A DNA stretch of 64,000 nt, from the IMG/VR virus record IMGVR_UViG_3300045988_174813. One strand, written 5' to 3'. This stretch comes from a virus. Positions 9,215-50,988 of this stretch are shown piece by piece. The translations under genes and the position numbers were made by a program. The notes under the pieces are model-generated. The model had not been told where the DNA came from. It worked only from the letters and a program-made list of their open reading frames with translations, and did no database searches. How positions within the stretch are numbered: the first letter of the stretch is position 1; the number at the start of each line of letters is the position of its first letter.

Positions 9215-9226
9215 AGTTTTGAAAAT

Positions 9227-9255: not shown

Positions 9256-9380
9256 AAATAATGTAAGGCGAGAGCCTATTTTACATAGATGATATAAATT
9301 TATGCTGTCCGCGCGGAGTGGATGGTATAACTTTTTATAGATAGAAGGAAACTCGAATTGTGTTTCACGGAGGCGATACA

Positions 9381-9716: not shown

Positions 9717-9718
9717 CT

Positions 9719-9985
9719 ATGGCGGGCCTCTCGGTACAAATGGCTCTTGTGGGCACGATTTAGCCGGAAGTATCACTCAAAGCACAAATGAACGCCGCAA
9801 TAACGGCTCAATCAGATATTTATGATGATATTGATGGCTATGTAATCACTCCTTCTTGGGAGGCTGACATCGTACTCCCTACAAAAAGTAAGCTAATGAA
9901 AGAAAATCTTACCGTCAAGAAGATTGCGCAAACCTCTGTAAGCAATGAAGCTGGCGGTATAACCTTGATTTTAGGAGGACAATAA
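9719..9985 (+). CDS. structural-module protein (1 sense TAG)
   Basis: ATG 9719, TAG 9761-9763, same frame as ORF 9788-9985. Confidence 0.55.
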
Positions 9986-9987
9986 TT

Positions 9988-10578
9988 ATGCCTGATAAGT
10001 ATGTAAATAAATTTATCCTCGATGGCGAGGTAAAGTTCGATCTTACTCAAGATGACATTACTGCTGATAAACTTGCTAAAGGTATCAAAGCGCACGATAA
10101 GTCTGGCGCGCCCATCGTCGGTACTTCTACTTTCGATGCAGATACTTCTGATGCTACTGCCGTCGCCGCGGAAATTCTCAATGGGAAGACCGCATACAAG
10201 GCTGGCGCGAAAATTACTGGTACTATGCCGAATAATGGAGCGAAAAATCTCGTAATCAATGACCTGACTACGACGGTAAAAATTCCTCTTGGCTATCATG
10301 ATGGGTCTGGCACAGTAAGTGTAGATACTGCGGAAAGTGCAAAAATCATCCCTGGCAACATTCGTGATGGTATTACTATTCTTGGTGTAACTGGCACTAT
10401 GAGTGGTACAGAAGGCGCGAAGGCGCAAACCAAGACTATCACCCCTACCTTTGCCGCGCAAGAAATTACTCCTGACAGTCCTGAATATAACTATCTTGCT
10501 AGTGTTACTGTGCAAGCCATTCCTGTGACCTATACAGATAATGAGTTTGGAGGTCAAACTCTCACCATCGGAGGCTAA
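9988..10578 (+). CDS. tail-associated protein
   Basis: N-terminus paralogous to the next gene (VNK..DGE..DLT.D..T.D.LA.GI.AH...G..IVGT). Confidence 0.6.
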   Translation: MPDKYVNKFILDGEVKFDLTQDDITADKLAKGIKAHDKSGAPIVGTSTFDADTSDATAVAAEILNGKTAYKAGAKITGTMPNNGAKNLVINDLTTTVKIPLGYHDGSGTVSVDTAESAKIIPGNIRDGITILGVTGTMSGTEGAKAQTKTITPTFAAQEITPDSPEYNYLASVTVQAIPVTYTDNEFGGQTLTIGG

Positions 10579-10580
10579 TT

Positions 10581-10970
10581 ATGGCAGTAAATAAAGTCGA
10601 AATTGATGGAGAGACTGCGTTGGATCTAACTAGCGATACAGTAACTTCAGATAATTTGGCTTATGGGATTACTGCTCATGGTGCGAATGGTGAAGTTATT
10701 GTAGGGACAAGAAAATTTTGTCGAATTTACAGTACAACTAATCCAGCACTAACTGCAAGCGCGGGCGCTTTTACGTGGACAGTTCCCGCGGCAGACCATA
10801 GATTTACATCTAAGGTTTTGGGTATATCATTATATGATAGTGAAGGCTAGATGGTTTTTACGAGTGTAACGATTGATAGCAGTTATAATATTGTGGTTAG
10901 TATGTATGATGAAACTGTGACTACAATTGAAGCTGGAAAGTATATAATTATAGTCATTGGTGAAGACTAA
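10581..10970 (+). CDS. tail-associated protein (1 sense TAG)
   Basis: TAG 10848-10850 read through to TAA 10968-10970; C-terminal NPALT..G.F.WT domain also ends the 6164 gene. Confidence 0.6.
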
Positions 10971-11048
10971 CTGCGCTATGCGCGCAGATATATATAAAGA
11001 GTATGGGGCGCGTAAGATGCGCGCCCTGCTTCTATGGAGGTGTACTCA

Positions 11049-11525
11049 ATGAAATATTTAGGAAAAGTTAGTGACCCGAAAGATCTAGCCACGAAAGAGT
11101 ACGTGGATGGAAAAGTTAGTGGCGTAGATATGTCCACAAAACAAGACCGTACTGACTTGTTGACAGAAGATAATGATTTTATTACAGGTGTGCCAGAAAC
11201 TTGTAAAGTTCCATATTATACAGCAGAGGGTGCGGAGAATTATTCTTGTTCTCTCGGCAGTTTACTAGCTGGCGCAATTCTAAACTAGGCTGGAACTGGC
11301 GCAGGACTTCTAAGAACCGATAATGGCGCGGTAAGCAAAGTTTCTTCTATTGGAACTAACGATATCGCCGAGAAAGCAGTAACCGCAAATAGGCTTGGCG
11401 CGGATGTAAATTATTCTGCTATCGGTTTAGTATCTAACCAGGTGCGTGGGATTTATGTAGGGACTGAAACCCCATCTAACACAATTGGCAATAATGGCGA
11501 TATATATATCAAATACGCTATTTGA
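11049..11525 (+). CDS. tail fibre-like protein (1 sense TAG)
   Basis: GGAGG RBS; MKYLGK..KEYVD N-terminus, NGDIYIKY C-terminus; TAG 11286. Confidence 0.6.
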
Positions 11526-11535
11526 GGTGAGATGA

Positions 11536-12111
11536 ATGGGAACTTGGTCTACAACAGCACCTACTAATTTAGCTACTGAATGGACAGAAATAAAAGAGAA
11601 CAATGCGCAAGGTGGATACCGCTTGAAGATAAGCGGGAATTATGTTTATCTTTATTATAACTGCATTGCGCGCGCCTGTTCTGCTTGGCTAGAAACTGGA
11701 CAATTATGTGTAAAAGTTGAAAATTACAGTTGCGCGACTGGTAATGCTAGCCCTGGAAATAGTTTGAGCACTAATGCTTATGTTACTGATGAGAGTGGTG
11801 TGAAAGTTTATGCTGATGCCAATACCACTAATATGGGTGATAGTAGTGAAGCTGCGCACGGGCACTCGCGCGGAACTTATTACTATACCTATGATGCAAG
11901 TTTTACTGTAACATCTGCTGTTGAAGCTGGTATTAGAGATAATAGTGGTGTATATGGTAATGGCACTTGTGGCGTAACAGTTACGGTTAGTACCAAGCCC
12001 GGTAGTGGCGGAAGTAGTGGTGGAGGAGGCAGTGGTGAAACAACTGCTAATCCAGTTTAGAACCTATATTTGAAGATAAATGGTGTTTGGTACCCTATTT
12101 TATGGGGGTGA
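11536..12111 (+). CDS. MGTW-family receptor-binding-like protein (1 sense TAG)
   Basis: TAG 12058 read through to ..NLYLKINGVWYPILWG, then TGA 12109-12111. Confidence 0.6.
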
Positions 12112-30066: not shown

Positions 30067-30220
30067 ACCTCGCACTTTCAACGAAATGGCGCGAACAATA
30101 CGAGGCTCTTGGGGCGATATAAATCCAGTCACGCGAATAGAGCGGGATAAAACAAAATATACAAGAAAGACTAAACATAAGGGTAAAGATAACTCCTACC
30201 TTTATGGGCTAGTAGCCTAA
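30047..30220 (+). CDS. small basic protein
   Basis: AGGAGG RBS; MKKKKTKPRTF..; last 15 nt overlap tRNA-Lys. Confidence 0.35.
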   Translation: MKKKKTKPRTFNEMARTIRGSWGDINPVTRIERDKTKYTRKTKHKGKDNSYLYGLVA

Positions 30221-30281
30221 TGGTTCAGGCAACGCCCTTTTAAGACGTCTGATGCTGGTTCGATTCCAGTCTAGCCCACCA
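30206..30281 (+). tRNA. tRNA-Lys (UUU)
   Basis: Acceptor GGGCTAG/CTAGCCC, anticodon loop CTTTTAA, T arm GCTGG-TTCGATT-CCAGT, encoded CCA. Confidence 0.85.
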
Positions 30282-30318
30282 ACCCGAAAGGGTATTCTAC
30301 TAGTAGGAGTGAAAATTT

Positions 30319-30684
30319 ATGGAACAAGTTCTTTCTTGGATACAGCTTGCCATCTAGGTTTTGTCTTGTCTCGTTGTAATCATTCCTCTTGGCTATAAGC
30401 TATACCAGACAATTGTTGCTTATGGCAAAGAGAAGAATTGGCCTAAGCTCGTCGGTCTTGTCGCTGTATATATGGCAGAAGCCGAAAAGAAGCTCTCTGA
30501 GGGAGCCGATAAGAAAACTTGGGTTATGGCTATGATACAAACCACAGCCAAGGAAATGGATTATGAGCTTACTGATGCTAAGCTTGCAGAGATTTCTCAA
30601 CTTATTGATGACCTTTGCGCGATGGCAAAGAAAGTCAATGTTAATGTTCTTCCTATTGAGGGCGGAGAGCCTGTGGTTGAATGA
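30319..30684 (+). CDS. LL-H-type holin-like protein (1 sense TAG)
   Basis: ATG 30319, TAG 30355, joins ORF 30361-30684; N-terminal TM then amphipathic domain. Confidence 0.45.
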
Positions 30685-30687
30685 ACT

Positions 30688-30711
30688 TTGGGAGGGTTTA
30701 TGCCCTCCCAA
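30688..30711 (+). terminator. stem-loop after the holin-like gene
   Basis: TTGGGAGGG-6 nt-CCCTCCCAA; no clear U tract. Confidence 0.35.
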
Positions 30712-30782
30712 TCTATAAATTTATCAAGCCCGCGCCTTCTAAGTGGACTTGTAATTAGAACTTCTATGTAGAAAGGTGGTTT

Positions 30783-31520
30783 ATGATTTTGAGTGTCAAT
30801 TACTTTTTCTCTGGGGATACACATGGAGATTTTTCTCGTTTTCGAGACAATCCCATAGCTCAGGATAAGAATAATTATATCGTAATTGCTGGTGATTGTG
30901 GCGCTAATTTTTTTGGTGGAAAGCGTGATATGCGAGTCTGGCAAGAAGTCTCTCAATACCCTTGCCGTTTTTATACCTATTGCGGAAATCACGATATGCG
31001 CCCGCAAAACACGTATAATATGGAACGAGTATATGATGAGGCAGTAAAAGGCTGGGTGTGGTGGAATCCTTACTTTCCTAACCTTCGTTATTTCGAAGAC
31101 TATGGTATCTATATGCTCGGTAAGTATAAGTGCGCCATCATAGGCCACGCTTATTCTGTAGATAAATACTATCGTCTTATGCGCAACTGGACGTGGCATC
31201 CTGATGAGCAACTTACTACCCAGGAACGCTATGAGTGTCAGAAGCTTATGGAAGGTCAGCATTTTGATTTTGTAATGACTCATACTGCGCCATATAATTC
31301 GCGCCCAGTAGATAAATTTTTGGCTTGTGTAGACCAGTCTACTGTAGATGAGACTATGGAGCATTGGCTTGAAGCTCTGCGCGCGGATATAGATTATGAT
31401 GTTTGGCTTCTTGGACACTACCATATTGACCGTATTCAAGAGCCTAAGATGCGGATATTCTATAAAGATATCGACAGTTTAGATAATATCTATACTCAAA
31501 TAGCAAAGCCCAAAATTTGA
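30783..31520 (+). CDS. metallophosphoesterase (calcineurin-like)
   Basis: GDTHGD, IAGDCG, GNHD, GH, LGHYH motifs. Confidence 0.75.
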   Translation: MILSVNYFFSGDTHGDFSRFRDNPIAQDKNNYIVIAGDCGANFFGGKRDMRVWQEVSQYPCRFYTYCGNHDMRPQNTYNMERVYDEAVKGWVWWNPYFPNLRYFEDYGIYMLGKYKCAIIGHAYSVDKYYRLMRNWTWHPDEQLTTQERYECQKLMEGQHFDFVMTHTAPYNSRPVDKFLACVDQSTVDETMEHWLEALRADIDYDVWLLGHYHIDRIQEPKMRIFYKDIDSLDNIYTQIAKPKI

Positions 31521-31545
31521 AAATTCAGAAAAATAATGGTATAAT
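31517..31545 (+). promoter_or_regulatory. sigma-A type promoter
   Basis: TTGAAA-17-TATAAT. Confidence 0.65.
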
Positions 31546-31577
31546 ATATATAGAAAATGAAAGTGAGGGAAAACTAA

Positions 31578-31826
31578 ATGATTACAACTAACGATTGGAA
31601 TGTAGTTCTCAAAGAGCTTGGCTATAAGGAACCAGTATCTAAAGTAAAGCGTAAGCAGAAGCCTACTAAGTGTCGTCTATGTGGCGCCAATATGGTTCCC
31701 CATCCTGGCACCAATGTCTTTACTTGCTCTGGCACTATTGAGAAGGAAATCGAGAAGGATGGTAAGACTGTCAAGATTAGTGAGTCTTGTCCAGGCGTGT
31801 TTCTGCGCAATCGTATTATCAAGTAA
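31578..31826 (+). CDS. zinc-ribbon protein
   Basis: CRLCG..CSG..C; 82 aa. Confidence 0.55.
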   Translation: MITTNDWNVVLKELGYKEPVSKVKRKQKPTKCRLCGANMVPHPGTNVFTCSGTIEKEIEKDGKTVKISESCPGVFLRNRIIK

Positions 31827-31864
31827 ATAACCCCATAAAATCTAACCGAAAGGGAGGACTAGTT

Positions 31865-32089
31865 ATGGAAAGAATCATTGTAGTAGTTGGCTATTTCCCT
31901 AAGTCTAGAGTGTATATGGCTAAAATTGTGCGTGGAGACATATGGGCGCAAGCTTGGAAAGACCAGTGGACTGCTGATGGTGGAACTGTAGCAGTAGGAA
32001 AAATGTTTTATACCAGTGGTAAGCGCGAAGAAGCCTATAAGACTCTCAAGACTAAACTCATAAAAGAAATAAAGGAGAAGAATAACTAA
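31865..32089 (+). CDS. hypothetical protein
   Basis: GGAGG RBS before ATG 31865. Confidence 0.55.
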   Translation: MERIIVVVGYFPKSRVYMAKIVRGDIWAQAWKDQWTADGGTVAVGKMFYTSGKREEAYKTLKTKLIKEIKEKNN

Positions 32090-32325
32090 TGGAAGATGGT
32101 TGGATAGATGTAAACTATTCCTTCTCTACTGTAGGCTATGCGCGTGATACATTACTTGCGCGATTACGGCAGATGGTTGTGAATTATGAACGGTTGGAAC
32201 TTGTGGATAGAAGTCATTGGAGTGATTGGCGCGAGACAATTCTTTTGCGCGGGTCTATTCGTGATGGAGAATATGGCGAGTTTCAGAAGTTTATGGAAGA
32301 AATGATGCGTGAGTATGATGTGTGA
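32089..32325 (+). CDS. hypothetical protein
   Basis: 78-aa ORF, TAATG coupling. Confidence 0.55.
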   Translation: MEDGWIDVNYSFSTVGYARDTLLARLRQMVVNYERLELVDRSHWSDWRETILLRGSIRDGEYGEFQKFMEEMMREYDV

Positions 32326-32328
32326 AAT

Positions 32329-32357
32329 TTGAATTTTTGAAAAATTTAGTGTATAAT
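32329..32357 (+). promoter_or_regulatory. sigma-A type promoter (variant leader TGTAAGGTTGAGAGAG)
   Basis: TTGAAT-17-TATAAT. Confidence 0.65.
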
Positions 32358-32385
32358 ATATATGTAAGGTTGAGAGAGAAATAAT

Positions 32386-32646
32386 TTCTTGAAACTTTAT
32401 ACGCACATATCGGGGCGGAGTATGCGACGACACGTGCAACGAAGCAAATAAACTCGGCAGTGCCTGTATATGTTGCAACCGTTGGAGGACGAGATAAACC
32501 TCCGGTAATTTGTAGTTTTCCATTCCTCAAGAGAAAGCTTCCGGAAATACGAGAAGGGAATGTATGGCGCGCGCGAACCAGCATTCAAAATCCCCACGAA
32601 GAGGGCATTTGTGGATTGGGTGTTTTGCCACAAGATGCACTAAAAT
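32386..32646 (+). ncRNA. promoter-driven ORF-free structured transcript, unknown class
   Basis: No RBS-preceded ORF; helices GGAGG/CCTCC, CATTCC/GGAATG, CCAC/GTGG; ends at the next promoter. Confidence 0.4.
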
Positions 32647-32647
32647 T

Positions 32648-32676
32648 TTGACTTTCTGGAAATTTTAGTGTATAAT
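32648..32676 (+). promoter_or_regulatory. sigma-A type promoter driving tRNA-Leu
   Basis: TTGACT-17-TATAAT; near-identical copy at 34550. Confidence 0.7.
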
Positions 32677-32696
32677 AAATATAGAAAGTGAGATAT

Positions 32697-32781
32697 GGGG
32701 AATTGGTGTAATAGGTAGACACAAGGCACTTAAAATGCCTGGGCGAGAGCCATACCAGTTCGAGTCTGGTATTCCCTACCA
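32697..32781 (+). tRNA. tRNA-Leu (UAA)
   Basis: Anticodon arm AGGCA-CTTAAAA-TGCCT, long variable arm, T arm ACCAG-TTCGAGT-CTGGT, A73, CCA. Confidence 0.85.
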
Positions 32782-32867
32782 TACAAAAGGATAGGATGAT
32801 GTTGGCCTATCATCTGATAAGAGATGCCCCTCTTCCTTTTGTTTATTTTAGGGCAAGGGGTAAATTT

Positions 32868-33503
32868 ATGGCGTATATTTATAAGATTGTAAATAGAGTA
32901 AATGGAAAACTCTATATTGGTAAAACTTAGTTCTCTATTGAAAGGCGATTTTAGGAGCATATTAGAGCCTCTAAAAAAGAAAATTGTGCTAATCGTCCTC
33001 TATATAAAGCTATGAAAAAATACGGGATTGACAATTTTTATGTTGAACTTATTGAGGAAACTAATAATCCAGAAGAGCGTGAGCAGTTTTGGATAAGATA
33101 TTATAATAGTTATGTTGGTTTTTCTAACTGTCAAGGTTATAATGCTACTTTAGGTGGTGACGGGAAAGCTTATATTGATAGAGAACCGATAATTGAACTC
33201 TTTTAGTAGGGTCTTACATAGAGAGAAATTTCTTCTTTGCTGGGTTATGATGCTCATACTATAAGAGTAGCTTTGAATGAAGCTGGATTTTCCCATAAAG
33301 AAATTGAAAATAATGCTCTTTCTAAATAGAAAAAGGGCGTTCAGATGTTAGATAAAATAACTTCTGAATAGATAGCTCTTTTCTCTTCTATAATGGAAGC
33401 AGAAAGGTATCTCCAAAAACCGCAAAGTCGTCGGCATATAGCTGAGGTTTGTAATGGAAAACGAAAATCAGCTTATGGGTATAAATGGCAATGGAATAAC
33501 TAA
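32868..33503 (+). CDS. GIY-YIG homing endonuclease (7 sense TAG)
   Basis: YIYKIVNRVNGKLYIGKT..RF.EH..N..LY.A..KYG..NF..E..E....REQFWI..Y; C-terminal ..NGKRKSAYGYKW; ORF 33012 shares the frame. Confidence 0.75.
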
Positions 33504-33538
33504 AATAAATTTATGGATGTATAACATCCATAATATAT

Positions 33539-33610
33539 GGCGGGAAGCGATGGTCGCAGATTGGTCTCATACACCAATTATTGAGTGTTCGAATCACTCT
33601 CCCGCACCCA
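33539..33610 (+). tRNA. atypical tRNA, anticodon CAU (Met/Ile2-type)
   Basis: Anticodon arm TTGGT-CTCATAC-ACCAA, T arm GAGTG-TTCGAAT-CACTC, CCA; D loop only 3 nt, G1/A72 mismatch. Confidence 0.5.
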
Positions 33611-34436
33611 TAGACGTGCCCTAATGCGTCTCTAAATAATCAGGGTAGTGCGAGAGAGGATGGATTTACGGTAAACTACCACTGGCGTCACAGACCCAAT
33701 AGGAGGGCGACGATATGTGGCTTGTCATTTGGAATCGCACTATAATACAAAGAAAACGAAAGTAACCGTGTATTTCTTATTCTGCGCGCCCTGCATTCAA
33801 AGCGCTCAATGAAGCAGGAGCTTAGTAGACAAAAGAAAAGGGTTCGTTTAGCTTATAACCCTAAAAGCTAAACTTTGTATAGAGGCGAGAGGATGAACCT
33901 CTATGGGGTTTTTGGTAACGGTCTCCTAACGAACACGTAACGGGTCGGAAGTCCCAAAATCTTCCCGCAGGCACGGCGATAGTTATCCCGCTTATGTGAA
34001 GGGTTCGTAGCGTAAAATGTACCCTATCCAGCAAGAAGCTACGCTGGGAGTGAGCTTCCGCTGGCAGTCGTGAAAAGCTCGCGTCTTAGGCTGTGTCAAT
34101 GCCCTAAGCGTTAGGTCGATTACGAGAAATTGACTAGGTTTTAGTGCTTTTGTGAAATATAAAGCTCCTGCGCGGGCGAGTGCAGAATATTGTAAAGGGA
34201 GAAGTACAATCCCATCGTTCAGTTTGGTCGTTGCTGTATAAAACGACCACCAAATGGCGCGCTTCCAGTTTCTAAATGCGTAGGTTGTCTTTACCTCAGA
34301 AATTATAGGTTGCATAGAAAGTAATTAGAAGATGTAAAATAATAATAAGTCCTATAAGAGTAAGGAAAAAGATAATGGTTAGATATGCAGGGCGTAGAGT
34401 TGATGGTGTGCTCGCGCGGAGGATGAAACCATCCAT
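33611..34436 (+). ncRNA. ~825-nt ORF-free structured spacer between two tRNAs (large ncRNA candidate)
   Basis: Looks GC-richer than flanks by eye; >=8 local helices, e.g. CTTAGG/CCTAAG 34085-34108, GGTCGTT/AACGACC 34226-34248. Confidence 0.45.
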
Positions 34437-34511
34437 GGAGTATTCGTATAGTGGCTAATATTCCAGTCTTCCAAACTGGCGCGGTGGGTTCAATTCCCAC
34501 ATACTCCTCCA
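34437..34511 (+). tRNA. tRNA-Gly (UCC)
   Basis: Acceptor GGAGTAT/ATACTCC, loop CTTCCAA, T arm GTGGG-TTCAATT-CCCAC, CCA. Confidence 0.85.
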
Positions 34512-34549
34512 TGGTTCGGTAGTTTATCCTTCAAAAGCTACCTAGAATT

Positions 34550-34578
34550 TTGACTTTCTGGAAATTTTAGTGTATAAT
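34550..34578 (+). promoter_or_regulatory. sigma-A type promoter driving the suppressor tRNA
   Basis: TTGACT-17-TATAAT; leader ATAGAAAGTGG runs straight into the tRNA. Confidence 0.7.
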
Positions 34579-34597
34579 AAATATAGAAAGTGGATGA

Positions 34598-34673
34598 AGG
34601 CCTGTGGTGTAACGGTAAGCATAGGAGGCTCTAACCCTCTTGATACTCGTTCGAGTCGAAGTCGGGCCTGCCA
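34598..34673 (+). tRNA. suppressor tRNA, anticodon CUA (reads UAG), Gln-like
   Basis: Acceptor AGGCCTG/CGGGCCT, anticodon arm GGAGG-CTCTAAC-CCTCT (CTA at 34631-34633), G73, CCA; one bulge in the T stem. Confidence 0.8.
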
Positions 34674-34803
34674 TACTAAAGGCGCACACAGCAATTCCTA
34701 ATAGGGTAAAAATTTGTTCTGCACAAACGAATTAGTTGGTTCAAATCCAACAAAAAAAACTTGCGTCTTGAGTTTATTTCAAAAGAAAGAAAGGAAAACA
34801 TTT

Positions 34804-35010
34804 ATGTCTACAAATAAAGGTTATATGAAAGCCTATAACTTCATTGCAAAGCCTGGTTCTAAATCCTCCATCGCACGTCAGGCGGAACTTTCCGCGCGAC
34901 CCGTTATTGTTCATTCTTGTAGTGTGTGCGGCGCGCAGGGAACATTGTATCGTACAAATAAGGGCGAACATCCTGCGGTGTATGTTTGTAAGGAGCATCG
35001 GGCGAAGTAA
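34804..35010 (+). CDS. small Cys-containing protein
   Basis: GAAAGGAAA RBS, ATG 34804; CSVCG..C..H. Confidence 0.5.
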   Translation: MSTNKGYMKAYNFIAKPGSKSSIARQAELSARPVIVHSCSVCGAQGTLYRTNKGEHPAVYVCKEHRAK

Positions 35011-35026
35011 GTTTCGCCCTATATAT

Positions 35027-35101
35027 TGTGCTTTAGCTCAGTGGTAAGAGCCGGCGACTTATAATCGTCAGACGATAGTTCAACTCTATCAAGCACAACC
35101 A
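35027..35101 (+). tRNA. tRNA-Ile (UAU)
   Basis: Acceptor TGTGCTT/AAGCACA, D arm GCTC-AGTGGTAA-GAGC, loop CTTATAA, T arm GATAG-TTCAACT-CTATC, CCA. Confidence 0.8.
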
Positions 35102-35514
35102 TTTGGGAGGAAGGATGTAATCCGTAATCTACCTCCACTAATATGGCGTAAGTAGCTTGGACTTTGCTCCGCCTATAATAGAGCCTAACTCAAAGCATAG
35201 TGTTATAGAGCGTGAGAGCCAACGTCTATGTTGGCTCCCGCAATTGAACAGCTAATTATTCATTTTTCCCTACCTCCTTCTTTGTTCTCTTTTGGTCGTT
35301 GAGAGAATAAATAAAACGACTACCAATAGACTTTCACACCTCTGGCGGGCTGCAAGTGGCAAATGAAAGTCTTTCCGAAAGTAGGAAAATCCTTCTACTT
35401 GCGCGGAAACCATTTCGGAATTGACCACTGCGATGGTATCTTCGTTTTAGAGGTTACAGCCTAGTTAGCCATTATGGGAAGTCTGGTCAATGGAACATAA
35501 TGGTTAGCGTACTT
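35102..35514 (+). ncRNA. ~410-nt ORF-free structured spacer
   Basis: Helices GAGCCAAC/GTTGGCTC 35215-35236, GACTTTCA/TGAAAGTC 35329-35371, and 12 bp TTAGCCATTATG/CATAATGGTTAG 35464-35508. Confidence 0.4.
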
Positions 35515-35591
35515 GGTGCCATCGACTAATTGGCTAGGTCACGACCCTTTCACGGTCGTAATGTTGGGTTCAAGTCCCACTGGCATCTCCA
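35515..35591 (+). tRNA. tRNA-Glu (UUC)
   Basis: Acceptor GGTGCCA/TGGCATC, anticodon arm CGACC-CTTTCAC-GGTCG, T loop TTCAAGT, CCA. Confidence 0.75.
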
Positions 35592-35624
35592 TATATTACC
35601 GATATATTAGAAAGGAAGAGACAA

Positions 35625-36398
35625 ATGGACATCACTAATTTTGATACCTATAATGCGCGAATGTCATCCTCTATTGAGGATAAAATGTGGTTTTGGGATA
35701 AAGTCAAACATACTACAGATTCTATTGTAGATTATGGATGCGCCGATGCGTCTCTTCTTTTGCGTATCAATGAAGAGCATCCTTATCAGACTCTTATTGG
35801 CTATGATGCTTCTGATGATATGCTAGCCCGCGCGAAAGAAAAAACTAAAAATACACCTATTTGCTTTGTAGAAAGTATATTTGAGCCGGAAATGAAAGAG
35901 ACTTGTCTTGTTCTTTCTTCTGTAATTCATGAAATCTATTCTTATCAGTTGAAAGAAGATGCAGATTTTGAACTGGGCATGATTTTTGACCTTGGCGCAA
36001 AATATATTGCAATTCGTGATATGGGTATACGAGATATATGCCGTAATATAGAAACACCAATCGATGTTCTCAAAAACATTTATGCACGCGATGATGTTGC
36101 TAAGATTGCTTCTTTTGAAAAACGTCAAGGCCGTATTTCTAATTGGGCAAATTGTATTCACTATCTTTTGAAGGCGCCATATGACGAGAATTGGGCGCGA
36201 GAAGTGGAAGAAAATTATGTACCGTTTACTATGAATGAAGTGCTCGCGCAATATAATGTGGATAGTCCTGTCAAATATGATGTGGTGTTTTTTGAAGCAT
36301 ATACCTTACCCTATGTGCGCGAACGCATTATTCGAGATTATAATATTAGCTTGTATACGCCCACTCACTATAAACTGCTTCTTGAACGTCATTTCTAA
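35625..36398 (+). CDS. class I SAM-dependent methyltransferase
   Basis: IVDYGCADAS (motif I), LIGYDASD, LVLSSVIHE; embedded in the tRNA island. Confidence 0.6.
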   Translation: MDITNFDTYNARMSSSIEDKMWFWDKVKHTTDSIVDYGCADASLLLRINEEHPYQTLIGYDASDDMLARAKEKTKNTPICFVESIFEPEMKETCLVLSSVIHEIYSYQLKEDADFELGMIFDLGAKYIAIRDMGIRDICRNIETPIDVLKNIYARDDVAKIASFEKRQGRISNWANCIHYLLKAPYDENWAREVEENYVPFTMNEVLAQYNVDSPVKYDVVFFEAYTLPYVRERIIRDYNISLYTPTHYKLLLERHF

Positions 36399-36405
36399 TC
36401 TATAT

Positions 36406-36489
36406 GCCACCGTGATGGAAAGTATACATACAAGCCTTAGAAGCTTGCGCCCGCGAGGGATTGCGAGGTCGAACTCGCCGGTGGCACCA
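36406..36489 (+). tRNA. tRNA-Leu (UAG)
   Basis: Acceptor GCCACCG/CGGTGGC, anticodon arm CAAGC-CTTAGAA-GCTTG, long variable arm, A73, CCA; T loop looks 6 nt. Confidence 0.7.
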
Positions 36490-36496
36490 GTAAAAT

Positions 36497-36525
36497 TTGA
36501 ATTTTCTGAAAATTTAGTGTATAAT
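36497..36525 (+). promoter_or_regulatory. sigma-A type promoter
   Basis: TTGAAT-17-TATAAT. Confidence 0.65.
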
Positions 36526-36559
36526 ATATACATAAGATGAAGAAAGGAAAGAAAATCTA

Positions 36560-36775
36560 ATGGCTTATTTTGATTGTATGGGAACTTGTGGGGTTAGTCC
36601 TTTCAAGTGTAAGAATCACTATTGTAGTGGTAATCCTCATTACACCCCGCCGAAGCGGAAAGTGAAACCCAAGCAGGGTTCTGGCAATCATCCTGTTCGT
36701 TCTATTCGTGCGAAAATTCGTAAGGATGATGGACGCGGATATAATTTCTTTAGAGATATGGCGCGAGACGAATAA
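36560..36775 (+). CDS. small basic Cys-rich protein
   Basis: GAAAGGAAAG RBS; 71 aa, K/R-rich. Confidence 0.5.
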   Translation: MAYFDCMGTCGVSPFKCKNHYCSGNPHYTPPKRKVKPKQGSGNHPVRSIRAKIRKDDGRGYNFFRDMARDE

Positions 36776-36778
36776 GTT

Positions 36779-36855
36779 TAGCGTATAGTGGAAGGCTCTT
36801 ACAGCGATAGATTTATAATTCTATTGTATTATTGGTTCGACTCCAATTGCGCAAT
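36779..36855 (+). tRNA. tRNA-like gene with 7-bp anticodon stem and 8-nt loop (TTTATAAT)
   Basis: Acceptor TAGCGTA/TGCGCAA (1 mismatch), T arm ATTGG-TTCGACT-CCAAT; non-canonical anticodon arm. Confidence 0.35.
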
Positions 36856-37239
36856 TGCGTATAGCTTAGTTGGTAAAGCAAATAAAAATTATTAGAGCCT
36901 TGGATAGTTTACCTTAGATAAGTTTGGATTTTAGTTAGTTTTGAGTAAAGACCCTTACAGCAAACATTCTAATATTTTTGGACTTATAATCCCGTGGTCG
37001 GTGGTTCGAGTCCACCTCAGACAGCCTGCGTGGTATGTCAGGTAGCTCAGTTGGCTAGAGCACGAAAATTATTTTGTGGGTCTTGTTTTATGTTTTGTTG
37101 GATTGGTACTCCTTAGTAAATAAAGGCGCGGGACTGCAATCTTTGAAAAAAGAATGTGATATAATAGATACTGTCGAGCGACCTCGGTAGGCTTGACCCC
37201 AAGTTCGGCTGGATTATCCAGCTCGCGCCTTGTATTTAT
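36855..37239 (+). other. cluster of unpaired tRNA half-molecules plus a structured element
   Basis: 5' half 36855-36880, 3' half ~36978-37024 (loop CTTATAA, T arm GGTGG-TTCGAGT-CCACC), 5' half 37036-37062; helix AAGGCGCG/CGCGCCTT 37124-37230. Confidence 0.4.
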
Positions 37240-37315
37240 GGATGGTTATCTCAACTGGAAGAGAGCTCGCCTTACACGCGAGAGGTTAGAAGTTCAAGTC
37301 TTCTACTATCCACCA
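37240..37315 (+). tRNA. tRNA-Val (UAC)
   Basis: Acceptor GGATGGT/ACTATCC, anticodon arm CTCGC-CTTACAC-GCGAG, T arm AGAAG-TTCAAGT-CTTCT, CCA. Confidence 0.85.
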
Positions 37316-37602
37316 TAGATTACCACTTGTTAGATTGTTATCCTCCTGAGACGTCAGCTAGTTCTGGCAATCAATAAGTGAATAATCTACGTCCAATATC
37401 TCACTCACGACGTAAAACTCTTGTGAGGTCGCAAAGGAGAGATGCGTGAGCGGGTCTCACTCCAGACTGCGTTAGGTCGAAAAGACGTCTAGCTCAACCT
37501 TTTTCTTTGTCTGTTCTTTTAGTGGAAGTATCGAAAAATGAACGGCAGAAACGTTTCGAGGTTCGAGTGGTTTCCTTGGGAGGACCGAAAACCACTCACT
37601 AT
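37316..37602 (+). ncRNA. ~290-nt ORF-free structured spacer
   Basis: Helices GTGAG/CTCAC ~37446-37460 and GTGGTTT/AAACCAC ~37567-37594; GACGTC-AGCT boxes at 37351 and 37484. Confidence 0.35.
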
Positions 37603-37679
37603 GCTTCCATACCCCAATAGGTAGAGGGGAATGGCTCAAACCCATTGTAGTCTCAGTTCGAATCTGAGTGGAAGTACCA
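37603..37679 (+). tRNA. tRNA with anticodon CAA but a short (class I) variable arm
   Basis: Acceptor GCTTCCA/TGGAAGT, anticodon arm AATGG-CTCAAAC-CCATT, 5-nt variable region, T arm CTCAG-TTCGAAT-CTGAG, A73, CCA. Confidence 0.65.
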
Positions 37680-37765
37680 TTGGCAGTTTACCACCTGCCG
37701 TCGATTTTTTTCTTTAGCATATGATAAGTTATGACGTTCTTATCTGAAATAAAAACGTCATCTAT

Positions 37766-37840
37766 GGGAGATTAGCCTAGTGGTTCAGGCAGTCGGCTGT
37801 TAACCGACCTACAGGTGTTCAATTCACTTATTTCCCGCCA
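37766..37840 (+). tRNA. tRNA-Asn (GUU)
   Basis: Acceptor GGGAGAT/ATTTCCC, anticodon arm GTCGG-CTGTTAA-CCGAC, T loop TTCAATT, G73, CCA. Confidence 0.85.
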
Positions 37841-37935
37841 GAACGGTTGTTGGGCCAACCGTTTCGTTTCCTCTTTTTCTTTGTAGGGTTTGGCAGTTTC
37901 CTTGGGGTCTCACTTCTAAAAACTGCCTTTTATAT

Positions 37936-38009
37936 TGAGGATGTGGTGTAATGGTAGCATTCCTGTTTTGGGTACAGGCGGAGCCGTTCAAATCGGACAT
38001 CTTCAACCA
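37936..38009 (+). tRNA. tRNA-Pro (UGG)
   Basis: Anticodon arm CCTGT-TTTGGGT-ACAGG, acceptor TGAGGAT/ATCTTCA, CCA; weak T stem. Confidence 0.65.
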
Positions 38010-38035
38010 TATCAAAAAAATTTAGGAGGTATATT

Positions 38036-38308
38036 ATGCCTAAGGTACTCTTTGAATGTAATGATTGTGGCAAGTTCTATGGCAGTGAAGCGGAAGCTCT
38101 TGCTTGTGAAAAAGCTCATGCTAGTGAACGCACGCGTAAGGAAAAGCTTCAGGCTGAAAAGAAAGCTCGTTTGGAAGCTATCCGTGCACAGTATGAAAAG
38201 CTTCTTGAAGATATTCGCAAGTTCAATGAGGACTATGCGGAACCTGCAACAATGAGTTATACTGGTGCACTTAGTAAGGTGTTGGATAGTTTTTTCAAGT
38301 TGTTCTAA
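38036..38308 (+). CDS. zinc-ribbon / coiled-coil protein
   Basis: AGGAGG RBS; CNDCG..C start, K/E-rich helix. Confidence 0.55.
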   Translation: MPKVLFECNDCGKFYGSEAEALACEKAHASERTRKEKLQAEKKARLEAIRAQYEKLLEDIRKFNEDYAEPATMSYTGALSKVLDSFFKLF

Positions 38309-38403
38309 GTGAATCATTGAATAAGATATAAAGACGCATAACAGCAATACATTATATAAATATTTTTTGAAAATATATTATGGAAATGCGTCTTGGTTTA
38401 TAT

Positions 38404-38478
38404 AGGAGCGTCGCCAAGTGATTAAGGCACGGGACTTTGACTCCCGCATCGTGCGTTTGAATCGCACCGCTTCTGCCA
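38404..38478 (+). tRNA. tRNA-Gln (UUG)
   Basis: Acceptor AGGAGCG/CGCTTCT, D arm GCCA-AGTGATTA-AGGC, anticodon arm CGGGA-CTTTGAC-TCCCG, G73, CCA. Confidence 0.85.
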
Positions 38479-38558
38479 GATAGATTGAATAAATCGTCTA
38501 ATTCAAGTAGGTTATAAGATAGTCTGCTAATTTCCGTTCAGCAGGAGCGCAGAAAGAT

Positions 38559-38586
38559 AGATATAAGACCTAATATATCTTTTGTT
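38559..38586 (+). terminator. stem-loop plus T run
   Basis: AGATATA-8 nt-TATATCT, then TTTTG. Confidence 0.45.
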
Positions 38587-38601
38587 CAATCAACCTAAAA
38601 T

Positions 38602-38630
38602 TTGAATAATTTCAAAATATATTGTATAAT
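38602..38630 (+). promoter_or_regulatory. sigma-A type promoter
   Basis: TTGAAT-17-TATAAT. Confidence 0.65.
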
Positions 38631-38665
38631 ATATACATAAAGTAAAGAAGAAAGGAAACACTAAA

Positions 38666-39037
38666 ATGAAAACCTATCCTATTGAGAAGTACAAGTTCAT
38701 TATCCTTCCTGAGCAGAAGAAAGTCATTGCGCTTACTTCGTATGCTGGTAAAACTGTAAAGGGTGTTGCCGTGTGCAGTGAACATGATGAATTTGATATT
38801 GAAACGGGCAAACGGCTTGCTGCCGCGCGAGCCAATGTAAAGGTAGCAATGAAGCGTAAGGCGCGTGCCGAGAAGAAGCTGGCATACTTTGATAAAATTA
38901 TTGAAGATGTCGAGCGTGAGTATCATGAGCTTGAAGGTTATGCTTATGATGCTGGCGAACGATGGGAAAACGCGATTGATGAACTGGCTGGTGTGCTGAA
39001 TGATGTTGGCGCGCTTGAGCCGATGGATATTGAGTAA
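38666..39037 (+). CDS. hypothetical protein
   Basis: GAAAGGAAA RBS; 123 aa. Confidence 0.55.
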   Translation: MKTYPIEKYKFIILPEQKKVIALTSYAGKTVKGVAVCSEHDEFDIETGKRLAAARANVKVAMKRKARAEKKLAYFDKIIEDVEREYHELEGYAYDAGERWENAIDELAGVLNDVGALEPMDIE

Positions 39038-39048
39038 GGAGTAAATTT

Positions 39049-39645
39049 ATGGGTCGGTGCGAAAGTAAGTATTGTGAAAAATGTGGGTGTTATGTGCCTG
39101 AGGGAGAGACAGCGTGTGTTTCTTGTGGGTATGATCCTACTCCAAAGCCTGTGCGCCGACCTGATCCTCTTGCAGATATGTATGCGCGAGACCCTTGGGC
39201 GATAGCGCAGTATCATACTCCTTTACCCATGGATTACGCACAACTGGTGAATGTGGCACCGAAGGTAAGACAGATGACTCTGAATGAAGTGCTTGATGAG
39301 TTGAAAATGGAAGATAAGTATGAGCGGTCCGCGCGAGCAATGAGTCAGATTTTTTGTTCAACTGCTCAAGCCTCTGAAGCTTTTACTCAACTTGCACGAG
39401 ACCATCAAGATGCGCAGAAACAGGTAATATTGCATGAATTTCTTTGGGCAAAAGGCGGAAAGGGCAATTCTTCAATAGTCACAACTCCAAATTGTATCAA
39501 AAATGAGATGGATAGAAATTGTTTGGAACTTTGTGAATATTGTTCTTTGGAACAAGAGAGAAAAGATATATATACTCACAGGATTATTAGAACATACAAA
39601 TGTTTGAAACATCCTCATGTGTCTTATATAAGTGTAATCAACTAA
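39049..39645 (+). CDS. zinc-ribbon protein
   Basis: CEKCG..CVSCG N-terminus; 198 aa. Confidence 0.55.
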   Translation: MGRCESKYCEKCGCYVPEGETACVSCGYDPTPKPVRRPDPLADMYARDPWAIAQYHTPLPMDYAQLVNVAPKVRQMTLNEVLDELKMEDKYERSARAMSQIFCSTAQASEAFTQLARDHQDAQKQVILHEFLWAKGGKGNSSIVTTPNCIKNEMDRNCLELCEYCSLEQERKDIYTHRIIRTYKCLKHPHVSYISVIN

Positions 39646-39647
39646 AT

Positions 39648-39741
39648 GGGCGTCTAATCCTAATTGGCTAAGGAAATAGTCTTGAAAACTATTAGTAGCA
39701 TCGTAAGGTGTGTCTCGGTTCAAGTCCGAGGGCGCTCGCCA
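39648..39741 (+). tRNA. tRNA-Ser (UGA)
   Basis: Anticodon arm ATAGT-CTTGAAA-ACTAT, long variable arm, T arm CTCGG-TTCAAGT-CCGAG, G73, CCA. Confidence 0.8.
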
Positions 39742-39743
39742 TG

Positions 39744-39856
39744 AATAGAATAGTAGGGTTAGCCTGTTCCGTGGTGATACGCGGGTCGCACCTTTGAGAA
39801 CGCCTTGTATACGGGTAAAACAGAGCACAAGCCGGCAATGTTCTCTCTATTCTATT
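39744..39856 (+). ncRNA. ~115-nt structured spacer closed by a 10-bp helix
   Basis: AATAGAATAG (39744) pairs with CTATTCTATT (39847). Confidence 0.35.
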
Positions 39857-39862
39857 TTATAT

Positions 39863-39950
39863 GCGGAGTAAATCCAGAAGGTCTGGAGCCTACCTGCTAA
39901 GTAGTGCGTAGTCGTAAGGCTATATGAATCGTTTTCATTGCTCCGCGCCA
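39863..39950 (+). tRNA. atypical tRNA-Ser (GCU)-like
   Basis: Acceptor GCGGAGT/GCTCCGC, loop CTGCTAA, long variable region, CCA; T loop lacks TTC and the D arm is aberrant. Confidence 0.45.
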
Positions 39951-39953
39951 TAT

Positions 39954-39996
39954 GCCAGAGATTGGTGTTGAGTGGGTTCGAATCCCACCGCTGGCA
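39954..39996 (+). other. acceptor/T-arm minihelix (tRNA lacking D and anticodon arms)
   Basis: GCCAGAG-11 nt-GTGGG-TTCGAAT-CCCAC-CGCTGGC-A; no CCA. Confidence 0.4.
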
Positions 39997-40073
39997 TCGA
40001 GGGCTTTTGCAATAAGCCCAAGAGATTGCAATCATGTATATTGGGAGGAGTTGAGACCCTACCCAATATATAT

Positions 40074-40148
40074 GCCTTCGTAGTATAATGGCTATTACTT
40101 CGGATTTGTAACCCGAAGATAGGTGTTCAATTCACCTCGAAGGCTCCA
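40074..40148 (+). tRNA. tRNA-Thr (UGU)
   Basis: Acceptor GCCTTCG/CGAAGGC, loop TTTGTAA, T arm AGGTG-TTCAATT-CACCT, CCA. Confidence 0.8.
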
Positions 40149-40648
40149 TTACCGCACGGATGGCCATGGTTCCAATATGACGGTATTACTTCTATATTGA
40201 AGGTTTGGTGCGGTATATAAATGAATATGGGTCTAAATTCAAATGGTAGAGCCTTCATTTGAATAACAAAGTGTGATAAATGTGAACAGATAGAGCGCTA
40301 AGCGCACGGGTCTTCTAGGGGCCTTCTCTATCATCTATGCTCTAATAGTTTAGTAGGAAAAATACCGGCATCGTTGCCGGAGAGAGCGGTTCGAATCCGT
40401 GAAGGGGCCGTGGTTCTTCCACCACGAAGAGAAGCGGGTGGTTTCCACCGTTAGGAAACTAAGATACCGAGTGACACGTGGTATCTATGGGAGGATACGT
40501 TGACTTCCACTGTTGGTCTCCTCAACAGTAATGTAGATGGAGTGACATCCGGAAAAGAGCGGAATAGCGCATTCGACGTTGTGATGTGCGCCATAGGTAT
40601 ATGGCCGGAAAAAAGATACCCATCCCGTCTGCGAGGACGGGAGCCTAT
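40149..40648 (+). ncRNA. ~500-nt ORF-free structured spacer (large ncRNA candidate)
   Basis: Helices TACCGCAC/GTGCGGTA 40151-40215, GATACC/GGTATC 40463-40485, CTGTTG/CAACAG, CCCGTC/GACGGG 40623-40640; holds a tRNA 5'-half-like copy at 40339. Confidence 0.4.
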
Positions 40649-40729
40649 CCTCTAATAGCAAAGTGGTAATGCATACCATCCCAAGTTTACGTAAGAAGGT
40701 AACCATTGGTTCGAGTCCAATTTAGAGGA
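40649..40729 (+). tRNA. tRNA-like gene with an enlarged anticodon region
   Basis: Perfect acceptor CCTCTAA/TTAGAGG, D arm GCA-AAGTGGTAA-TGC, T arm ATTGG-TTCGAGT-CCAAT; TACC..GGTA encloses 20 nt; no CCA. Confidence 0.4.
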
Positions 40730-40730
40730 C

Positions 40731-41704: not shown

Positions 41705-43405
41705 ATGGCTGGCAAGCTATGGCATGCCTTTGGATAGCAAGGTACTTTTGTATACTATAAGCGCCTTGCAACTGATGCTTTAGTAAATCCTTCTCTTGGA
41801 GGACTATATAAGCATTCATTGGGGCAACTTGAAATGTCTTCTATACTTGGAAAAGTGAAGAATAAAGATATATCGCGGTCTCTTCGTGCGCAAGCATCTG
41901 TGGAGTTAAACAAAGAGCTTACTGCTTTGCAAAATGCCTGGGGCATAAGTTTTCCTGCTTCTGTCGTGAATGGGTAGTATTTTTATGATGGGCTGATTAG
42001 GGCTATTAATACACAAATACAAACTAATGCGGTGTATTAGCGTAATAAAGACCGTTTAGAGTATACCAATAAGCAAGGTAAACGAAATGCTCTTGCAAAA
42101 ATAGATGCGACGCAGTTCTTTGGAACATATTTTGAAAAACAATGGAAAGCAAATTATAAACAGATATAGGCTGAGTTAACAAGTAATATGACTGGTGATA
42201 ATCTTGTCCAACTTGTTGAGAGTACTCTAAATAACTGGCTTCCAACTTTATTAAATAATGCTCTTATAGATATGATGTCTAGTCAAGCGTTTGATGTGCG
42301 CTGGAATACACCAGAAGCTATAGCGGGTAATTAGCGCTGGGAACAGGATACTGCTTATAGAGATATGGTTGCCCAACTCCAAAAATACGGCGCAGATATG
42401 TAGAATAATCAGATATTACAATAGGTATGGAAAACGTATAATTTTGATGGGTTACTCGATGCACTTACTAAATCTATTACTGCTTCCGCGAAAGCAGAGA
42501 CTTCTACTAAGGATTTAAGTAAAGTTCTTTCTAAACAAGTTTCTAAAGTAGTGGGGCGCGCATCTACGGCAGGTAATTTAGCTGAAATCATTTGGAGTTA
42601 GCTGGTTGCAAGTGTAAATAGTGGTCCTGACTTTAGTGTAATGCATACTGGCGCGCGCAATCAATAGAAAGCCGACTTTATGATTTTCTTTCGCGCGAAT
42701 GCCCAAGACTTTCTAAGTAAGCAAAGTGAGATTATTGCTGAGCAAAAAGCTGACGATGAAGAAAGTATACGTATACAAAACATTATTGCAACTAACGGGG
42801 CATCATAGTTTTTAGCGAGTAATTCGATAGGTTATAATTTTATTGCTTACGTGAACGCAAAGAATTACACTCTCAATGATAGTTTTAGCGGATTTAGCGC
42901 AGGTTCCGCAATGGGCATGGGAGATATTGAACGTATGTTAAATATGATTCCTGGTGTAAGTTAGAATGGTGTATGGAGTCTAATTTCTTCTCTTATTCAA
43001 TTCGGAGATGGTGCGATTGGTGCGGGGACCGGCATGGAACAGGATCTTATGAATCAAATGAGTGAAGTCATTGCTAATTTTTTATTTGATGACTATGCAA
43101 CTTTGTGCTCTGATATAAGTGGTTCTACAAGTAGCAGTATTCATTTATTTGCTCTTGATGGGATATATATACCACTTTCTTTTTTTTTGAATATAAGTGC
43201 AGATGCTATTGATATAGGATGGGAAGAAGCGCAAGATTATTTTAATTTTGAACTTCATACTGTGCCTATACTTTATGGGGATTTGGCTCTTGATGAATAT
43301 ACGCCCGAAATGTGGGAGACACAAAGAGCTGATGCGCTTGCAAGAACTAAGATAAGTATGAGTTTTTTAAAGTCTTTTCAGACGCTTATTGGTTCTTTAA
43401 TATAA
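41705..43405 (+). CDS. 566-aa protein of unknown function (11 sense TAG)
   Basis: GGTGGTGAG RBS, ATG 41705; single frame to TAA 43403-43405; contains ORF 43034-43405; all 11 internal stops are TAG. Confidence 0.7.
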
Positions 43406-50208: not shown

Positions 50209-50988
50209 ATGGATAGAAAGAAATATAAATGGATTGTAATCGGGCTACTGATTGTAGTTCTGTTGTCGTATTTGATTACTAGTGCGCGAGCCACAAATGA
50301 GCCTAATGGATATGTGGTTAGTGAGACAACATTGTATAGTGGGCCAAGCTATAATGCGAGTAGTTATACAACACTTAGTGTGGGGACAGAGCTTTGTGTA
50401 TATGGACGATATAACCAATGGTATGAAGTTGGTTGGAATGGAAAGACTGGGTATGTGTTGAGTGAGTATGTGTCTATTGACCATAAGCAAGACTACACAA
50501 TTACTATTGATGCAACACCTGTGCCTATTGCTCCGGTAGCTACTCCATTCAATAAGCCAATGGAGCCCGCGCCTAGCGAGCCGACTACTACTACACTAAC
50601 TCCTACTCCTACTTCTACTTTTACGCCTTCGGGTGATACCTCTATTGTAGAAAGTGCAGAAGCCTATCTTGGTGTCCCCTATAAATGGGGTGGAACCACT
50701 GATAAAGGTATGGATTGTAGTGGTTTTGTCCAGAAAGCTTACGAAGATGCAGGCTACTCCATTGGACGCACCACCCAAATTCAGGCTTTTGAAGGTAAAG
50801 AAGTAGAAGACTATGCGCCTGGCGATATTTTATGTTTCGGACGTAGTAAATGGAACATCTTCCACACAGGAATATATATTGGTGATGGGAAGTTTATTCA
50901 TTCGTCCTCGCCAGAAGGTGTTGTTGTGAGCGAGCTTGATGGGTATGGATTGAAACTTATTATGGCAAGGAGAATAAGTGAAGAATGA
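50209..50988 (+). CDS. secreted SH3 + NlpC/P60 (C40) peptidoglycan endopeptidase
   Basis: N-terminal TM/signal, SH3-like ..Y.GPS......L.VG....Y......WYEV..NGKTGYV; Pro/Thr linker; GVPYKWGG..GMDCSGFV..H.GIYIG.GKFIH. Confidence 0.8.
   Translation: MDRKKYKWIVIGLLIVVLLSYLITSARATNEPNGYVVSETTLYSGPSYNASSYTTLSVGTELCVYGRYNQWYEVGWNGKTGYVLSEYVSIDHKQDYTITIDATPVPIAPVATPFNKPMEPAPSEPTTTTLTPTPTSTFTPSGDTSIVESAEAYLGVPYKWGGTTDKGMDCSGFVQKAYEDAGYSIGRTTQIQAFEGKEVEDYAPGDILCFGRSKWNIFHTGIYIGDGKFIHSSSPEGVVVSELDGYGLKLIMARRISEE

Follow-up and report, generated by a model that had tools for sequence, protein, structure and literature searches.

The viral DNA analysed here, a stretch of 64,000 nucleotides (IMG/VR record IMGVR_UViG_3300045988_174813; hereafter the window), contains a gene for a tRNA whose anticodon, CUA, reads the amber stop codon UAG. 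This locus raises the question of what a phage does with such a tRNA, and which amino acid it would deliver. With a probability of about 0.85, as judged from sequence evidence, this is an amber suppressor with which a TAG-recoded phage can translate its own genes, TAG standing for glutamine (genetic code 15).

The tRNA(CUA) gene was called by ARAGORN as a 76-nt tRNA at 34598-34673 on the plus strand, with the anticodon at tRNA position 34. The match to Rfam RF00005 (34598-34669) scores 33.8 bits against a gathering score of 29, which is above the cut-off yet among the weakest scores of the tRNA array. The anticodon loop CTCTAAC places CTA at 34631-34633, and ARAGORN agrees with this reading, which the initial annotation had proposed. 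The 7-bp acceptor stem consists of A1:U72, G2:C71, G3:C70, C4:G69, C5:G68, U6.G67, and G7:C66. It is accompanied by G10, an 8-nt D loop with GG, a variable loop of 4-5 nt, the T loop TTCGAGT, discriminator G73, and a gene-encoded CCA; the first three acceptor pairs, G10, and G73 can all be read in the sequence as first described. The T arm is irregular. The extra base reported to bulge from its stem appears in one drawing, with five pairs and a bulged A (ACTCG/CG-A-AGT), while in the register of the relatives it has three pairs and two mismatches, and an extra U precedes the acceptor stem. As a single sequence, the gene folds no better than its shuffled versions (z-score 0.33), and it does not form a cloverleaf in its minimum free energy (MFE) fold. 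The irregular T arm recurs in a second phage tRNA(CUA), at locus L089, with a fully compensated acceptor stem and a canonical acceptor end (U1:A72, G2:C71, G3:C70, G73).

Upstream of the gene, TTGACT (34550-34555) and TATAAT (34573-34578) are separated by a 17-nt spacer. The promoter scan scored this pair at 11 of 12 matches, so the promoter described earlier is present; the gap between it and the 5' end of the tRNA is 19 nt rather than 20. The promoter lies in a 51-nt box (34542-34592, plus strand; promoter scan, repeat family D1); counting this one, the tRNA region contains six related boxes. The proposed kinship with the tRNA-Leu unit holds: a sister box at 32640-32690 (plus strand), upstream of tRNA-Leu(UAA) at 32697-32781, is 98% identical over 51 nt. 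Four relatives have exactly the same -35 and -10 hexamers.

The suppressor belongs to an array of 16 tRNA or tRNA-like genes (30206-40730, plus strand; ARAGORN and Rfam), where it is placed between tRNA-Gly(UCC) and tRNA-Ile(UAU), an order also seen in the relatives. Just 3' of the suppressor, at 34735-34751 on the plus strand, the element GTTGGTTCAAATCCAAC looks like an isolated tRNA T arm and is followed by an A run. It is kept in the relatives, precedes a small conserved ORF (about 34804-35010), and could represent the remnant of a tRNA or a signal for processing. The tRNA-like gene at 40649-40730 (plus strand) scores 44.5 bits with the Rfam tRNA model, with an ARAGORN "anticodon" of only two nucleotides (cc); some relatives carry a tRNA with anticodon ACA at the matching place. 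Two sub-threshold matches to the Rfam family YrlA (Y RNA-like) are located at 36779-36914 and 36979-37087 on the plus strand (39.7 and 33.2 bits, cut-off 69). One of them overlaps a tRNA-like gene, also conserved among the relatives, whose anticodon loop has 8 nt ("tata"). The window also encodes a DUF2828/DUF7788 protein (20957-22519, plus strand), called "RNA-binding protein" in one Bacillus phage record. Together with the YrlA-like matches, it may form a phage counterpart of the Y-RNA/Ro pair.

In the standard code, about one third of the window seems non-coding or fragmented. When TAG is read as a sense codon, the fragmented regions become long plus-strand ORFs with 1-11 in-frame TAGs each. 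Altogether, 46 in-frame TAGs are found in 18 plus-strand genes and none in the 33 other plus-strand genes. None of the 51 plus-strand genes, a count that includes the 33 defined under the standard code, is terminated by TAG (TGA terminates 27 and TAA 24). Pfam domains continue across TAGs in the endolysin, in a GIY-YIG gene, and in a Flg_new repeat protein, the Pfam match of the latter spanning one TAG. Reading through TGA or TAA, in contrast to TAG, does not produce a consistent group of long ORFs across which domains continue, and recoding of these two codons was rejected.

The largest recoded region is the block of tail-fibre-like and virion genes at 4346-16528 (plus strand), recognized by ORF analysis, PHROG tail-fibre/virion matches, and Pfam Flg_new. 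It contains 23 in-frame TAGs in 12 of its 14 genes, for example two in 6164-9169, three in 12117-13166, and five in 14320-15945. Read-through of the TAG at 12058 regains a C-terminal KINGxW motif common to the neighbouring paralogue. The endolysin gene (19638-20540, plus strand) encodes NlpC/P60-ELLD, LysM, and PG_binding_1 domains, matched by Pfam across five TAGs at 19767, 19941, 20001, 20289, and 20466. The GIY-YIG homing-endonuclease-like gene (32865-33503, plus strand), with a Pfam GIY-YIG match across two TAGs, lies between tRNA-Leu(UAA) and tRNA-Met. With seven in-frame TAGs in 212 codons, it is the gene densest in TAG within the window, and all seven are conserved in a relative, L109. 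Other endonucleases (GIY-YIG, HNH/NUMOD) occur in relatives at various places in the tRNA array. An ORF of 566 aa and unknown function (41705-43405, plus strand) contains 11 in-frame TAGs. Its counterparts are only 37-41% identical, against 85-95% for the flanks, which marks it as a hypervariable hotspot. This ORF is located next to PhoH, amid otherwise TAG-free genes.

Because at least 46 TAG codons lie inside tail-fibre, lysis, and other genes, the phage needs a suppressor. The recoding is concentrated in late-type genes, namely the tail-fibre block and the endolysin, while the genes for the DUF2828 protein, nucleoside deoxyribosyltransferase, permease, PhoH, methyltransferase, and phosphoesterase are free of TAG. 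This distribution indicates that early-type genes keep the standard code and late genes are recoded, the layout known from crAss-like, Lak, and other gut phages (bioRxiv 10.1101/2021.08.26.457843; PMC7886860). Two cell-wall hydrolases, a GH25-CW_7 lysin (16540-17574, plus strand) and an SH3_3-NlpC/P60 protein (50209-50988, plus strand), contain no in-frame TAG; some of the lytic enzymes are therefore independent of the suppressor. The lysin domains (LysM, PG_binding_1, CW_7, and SH3) point to a Gram-positive host. The window, which covers only about half of a genome of ~120-130 kb, yielded no gene for a release factor or an aminoacyl-tRNA synthetase, and neither did the precomputed Pfam lists of the relatives.

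Glutamine is the best-supported residue at TAG, and very probably the correct one, given the alignments and codon usage of the recoded genes. In the endolysin, the five TAG columns contain Q in 111, 115, 120, 99, and 119 of 120 homologues. For many close relatives this Q reflects a gene-caller convention, since these are themselves recoded, and the gene of a recoded relative cannot be translated in table 11. A 52%-identical relative is, however, translatable in the standard code and has CAG at two of the five TAG columns, and at the two near-invariant columns (120/120 and 119/120, with no K) distant homologues also carry Q. In PDB 5tv7, Q is found opposite the TAG at 20466. Close relatives have CAA or CAG opposite the endolysin TAGs, and at 14 sites where codons of close relatives face a TAG, these are codons for Gln (8), Lys (3), His (1), Asn (1), and Ser (1). 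The TAG columns of the GIY-YIG gene vary widely among distant homologues, which mostly carry K, E, I, or L there, and not Q.

Codon usage points in the same direction. The share of CAG among Gln codons is 0.26 in TAG-containing genes versus 0.56 in TAG-free genes (Fisher p = 8e-8), the pattern expected if the TAGs arose from CAG by C-to-T changes, while the shares of AAG among Lys and of GAG among Glu codons are the same in both groups. TTG is likewise lower in TAG-containing genes, so the depletion is not specific to glutamine codons. The initial proposal of an amber suppressor inserting glutamine is thus supported by the 46 in-frame TAGs, the Q-aligned columns, the CAA/CAG partners, the CAG depletion, and the tRNA-Gln label of the closest annotated tRNA genes. 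The initial annotation had overlooked the TAG recoding and so had drawn on other, less strong evidence.

The structure of the tRNA is consistent with charging by glutaminyl-tRNA synthetase (GlnRS). The identity set of this enzyme includes a weak first pair, G2:C71, G3:C70, G10, G73, and A37. All of these are present in the suppressor, as in E. coli suppressors of the supE type, with which it also shares the CUA anticodon. It differs from the supE type in having A1:U72 instead of U1:A72, C38 instead of U38, and an unlike D arm. Within the anticodon loop, C34, U35, and A37 are kept, while A36 replaces the G36 of glutamine tRNAs; this was the one deviation from the identity set recognized at first, to which C38 has to be added. 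A non-Gln anticodon is expected for a suppressor. Among 147 distinct tRNAs compared, the weak 1:72 pair together with G73 occurs in 9 of 10 tRNA-Gln(UUG) genes and, outside glutamine, in single Leu, Asn, and Pro genes; the acceptor-end argument for glutamine is thereby modestly supported.

The resemblance to the phage's own tRNA-Gln(UUG) (38404-38478, plus strand; ARAGORN) is weaker than the initial annotation claimed, as judged by comparing the two genes. They have A1:U72, G2:C71, G10, and G73 in common; the third pair of tRNA-Gln is G3.U70, and its D region, GCCAAGTGATTAAGGC, lacks the GGTAA core that both were said to share. Overall identity is 59%, which rules out the suppressor as a mutated copy of this gene. 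In this respect too it departs from the supE type, which is a tRNA-Gln with a CUA anticodon, since the window suppressor is not derived from the phage's own tRNA-Gln.

The suppressor is instead a member of a widespread phage tRNA(CUA) family. Its anticodon arm, AGGAGGCTCTAACCCTCT, was found in 103 IMG/VR stretches, always in a tRNA(CUA) where the stretch is complete, and many of these stretches belong to contigs of about 100 kb. In the family alignment, compensatory changes affect 11 of 21 stem pairs, supporting the cloverleaf. A scan of bacterial genomes with AGGAGGCTNNNACCCTCT (the anticodon stem with any anticodon), aimed at the cellular tRNA isotype ancestral to the suppressor, gave 119 chance matches outside tRNAs among the 120 listed, and the listed matches included one more tRNA(CUA). 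The nearest annotated genes are the "tRNA-Gln" of the Crassvirales phages cr53_1 (NC_055889.1 at 6664-6738) and cr60_1 (NC_055891.1), with 83.6% identity over 67 nt. They match the suppressor exactly in the anticodon arm, AGGAGGCUCUAACCCUCU, and almost exactly in the D arm. The acceptor end, however, is U1.U72 with A73 in the cr53_1/cr60_1 type and A1:U72 with G73 in the window suppressor, and the regular 5-bp T stem of the former contrasts with the bulged or mismatched one of the latter. The genome context is also different, and the host phylum probably so. On a tentative reading, a suppressor family common to crAss-like phages and to this phage, whose host probably belongs to a different phylum, would imply horizontal transfer of suppressors between unrelated phages.

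The alternative that survives best accepts suppression of UAG but has the tRNA carry lysine, alone or alongside glutamine; we consider it unlikely. In a synthetic amber-suppressor series, many tRNAs with a CUA anticodon accept Lys or both Gln and Lys in E. coli, and U35 is read by both GlnRS and LysRS. Lys codons are the second commonest partner of TAG in the relatives, where AAA or AAG faces TAG at 3 of the 14 sites and accounts for 8 of 52 partner types in the family of the 566-aa ORF. Two TAG-to-AAA switches separate relatives that are 92-98% identical, and most homologues have K at one of the GIY-YIG TAG columns. Exchange of Q and K is, however, frequent in proteins regardless of recoding, and K is absent from the two near-invariant endolysin columns, the Q of PDB 5tv7 also speaking for glutamine. 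Moreover, CAG and not AAG is depleted in TAG-containing genes, and the closest annotated relatives of the tRNA are named tRNA-Gln. Charging with glutamine thus remains the preferred reading.

No close relative of the phage was found among 50,697 GenBank phage records by megablast and blastn of the tRNA region or by tblastn. The matches of the nucleotide searches were limited to unrelated tRNA-Gly and tRNA-Ile sequences, and the DUF2828 protein reached at most 41% identity in tblastn. Many relatives are present in metagenomes, on contigs of 118-130 kb. Fifteen loci around the neighbouring methyltransferase gene were compared. In 14 of these, the slot between tRNA-Gly(UCC) and tRNA-Ile(UAU) holds a tRNA(CUA), detected by direct call in five and after removal of a group I intron in nine; the fifteenth locus, L247, does not reach the slot. 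In all filled slots, the promoter box and the sequence downstream of the tRNA are the same.

Three non-orthologous tRNA(CUA) alleles occupy this single promoter-flanked slot within one clade of near-identical phages. An allele identical to that of the window is present in two independent assemblies, L236 and L237. An unrelated allele, 64% identical to it, is found uninterrupted in L108 (8976-9050), L109 (9000-9074), and L242 (1573-1647). It is characterized by U1.U72, G73, and a T loop, AGCGTTA, that stands in for TTCRANY and resembles the T loop of tRNA-Gln(UUG) of the same phages; in L242, a C-G pair of the anticodon stem is replaced by U-A, a compensatory change. In L238-L241 and L243-L246, this allele is split by a 275-nt insertion after U33 (8735-9009 in L238). 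The third allele, in L110, is interrupted by a 196-nt insertion after U35 (8814-9009). Both insertions are group I introns by Rfam RF00028, above threshold at 52.9 and 58.2 bits, and in both cases the 5' exon ends with U and the intron with G. ARAGORN reports no suppressor in these nine loci because the gene is split by the intron, and in silico removal of the intron restores an ARAGORN tRNA(CUA). The suppressor gene of the window is free of introns, and Rfam detected none anywhere in the 64 kb. The ORF of 585-595 aa downstream of PhoH contains 7-10 in-frame TAGs in L236 and in the intron-bearing L238-L241, that is, in all loci tested.

The presence of an unrelated allele in near-identical phages looks like cassette-like replacement of the suppressor. 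A broader view, in which this slot serves as a code-switch cassette that is exchangeable and in some phages gated by a self-splicing intron, is offered only tentatively. The literature searched contained no report of a suppressor tRNA interrupted by a group I intron, which is not proof of absence. Like bacterial intron-split tRNAs, such as cyanobacterial tRNA-Leu(UAA), the genes of L238-L241, L243-L246, and L110 carry their group I introns in the anticodon loop; unlike them, the interrupted tRNA is a stop-codon suppressor.

The conservation of the slot bears on a second alternative, namely that the suppressor gene of the window is decaying or non-functional and that read-through is provided by a suppressor outside the window or by a host factor. 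The low Rfam score, the bulge or mismatches in the T stem, and the MFE fold other than a cloverleaf would fit such decay, and the window covers only about half of the 120-130-kb genome, leaving room for another gene. On the other hand, this is the only tRNA(CUA) that ARAGORN finds in the 64 kb, and the 46 in-frame TAGs require a suppressor. The gene is preserved without change in L236 and L237, the odd T arm is kept in L089 beside a fully compensated acceptor stem, and every locus that reaches the slot holds a tRNA(CUA) behind the same conserved promoter. Loss of function is therefore highly improbable.

A pyrrolysine tRNA typically has a shortened D loop and a 3-nt variable loop and lacks GG and T-Psi-C. 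This identity can be dismissed for the suppressor, for which only the CUA anticodon and the ARAGORN label "tRNA-Pyl" speak, since ARAGORN labels every CUA tRNA "Pyl" (35 of 35 distinct viral tRNA(CUA) genes here), the D, T, and variable loops are of the other kind, no pyl genes or domains are among the Pfam results, and the endolysin TAG columns align with glutamine.

The following course of events is proposed for the amber suppressor. The gene would be transcribed by host RNA polymerase from the sigma-70-type consensus promoter, which is present in the sequence and predicted to be active, and the short 5' leader would be trimmed, the 3' CCA being already in the gene. A host enzyme, be it GlnRS or GluRS acting with GatCAB, would then charge the tRNA, most likely with glutamine, as suggested by C34 and U35, which are shared with the Gln anticodon CUG, and by the Gln-like acceptor end (weak 1:72, G2:C71, G3:C70, and G73). 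The charged suppressor would compete with release factor 1 at UAG. Read-through is needed at each of at least 46 in-frame TAGs in the tail fibres, endolysin, homing endonuclease, and hypervariable ORF, and the residue inserted there would be glutamine, to which the alignments and codon statistics point.

Genes of nucleotide metabolism and other early-type genes, being free of TAG, should be translatable without the suppressor. The presence of TAG in virion and lysis genes and its absence from early-type genes suggest that the recoded proteins would be completed only after the suppressor accumulates, as proposed for other recoded phages, and synthesis of virion and lysis proteins would thus be gated by the suppressor level. 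With a sigma-70 consensus promoter, expression would begin at the onset of infection; by itself, this does not delay late relative to early translation.

TAG-recoded (code 15) gut phages are known among crAss-like phages, Lak megaphages, and phAss-1 (PMC7886860; bioRxiv 10.1101/2021.08.26.457843; PMC9523058; PMC6784885; PMC10607447), and phage-encoded TAG suppressors with TAG read as Gln have been described (PMC7886860; bioRxiv 10.1101/2021.08.26.457843). Code 15 in crAss-like phages is backed by mass spectrometry (PMC9523058). A 136-kb TAG-recoded gut phage carries three suppressors, and the suppressor of phAss-1 was called Gln by tRNAscan-SE (PMC10607447). "Enigmatic" tRNA introns have been noted in Lak phages (PMC6784885), and a comparable heavily recoded homing endonuclease in the TGA-recoded Agate phages (bioRxiv 10.1101/2021.08.26.457843).

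Like these code-15 gut phages, the phage described here encodes a tRNA(CUA), has TAGs in structural and lysis genes and none in early-type genes, aligns TAG with glutamine, and shows no dedicated aminoacyl-tRNA synthetase in the window. Unlike theirs, its suppressor is one of 16 genes in a tRNA array and has a consensus promoter of its own, and no RF2 gene is seen in the window. It belongs to neither the crAss-like nor the Lak phages, and its lysins suggest a Gram-positive host. By analogy, the mechanism appears to be that of the known code-15 phages. Since such recoding is already known in gut phages, the locus is a new example and not a new principle; the alternative alleles and intron-split suppressors of the relatives are the less ordinary part.

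Overall, reading TAG as glutamine makes the tail fibres, endolysin, and other genes whole, and the odd tRNA is in this sense the key to the genome. The finding adds an uncharacterized clade of ~120-130-kb phages, probably from the gut and probably infecting Gram-positive hosts, to the TAG-recoded phages. Its relatives suggest that suppressors can be swapped as cassettes and show that they can hide from standard tRNA finders by means of group I introns, which is relevant to the apparent absence of suppressors from many recoded phages. Intron-split suppressors would help to explain why surveys detect suppressor tRNAs in only ~40% of TAG-recoded phages. If splicing limits maturation of the suppressor, it would also time the switch to TAG decoding.
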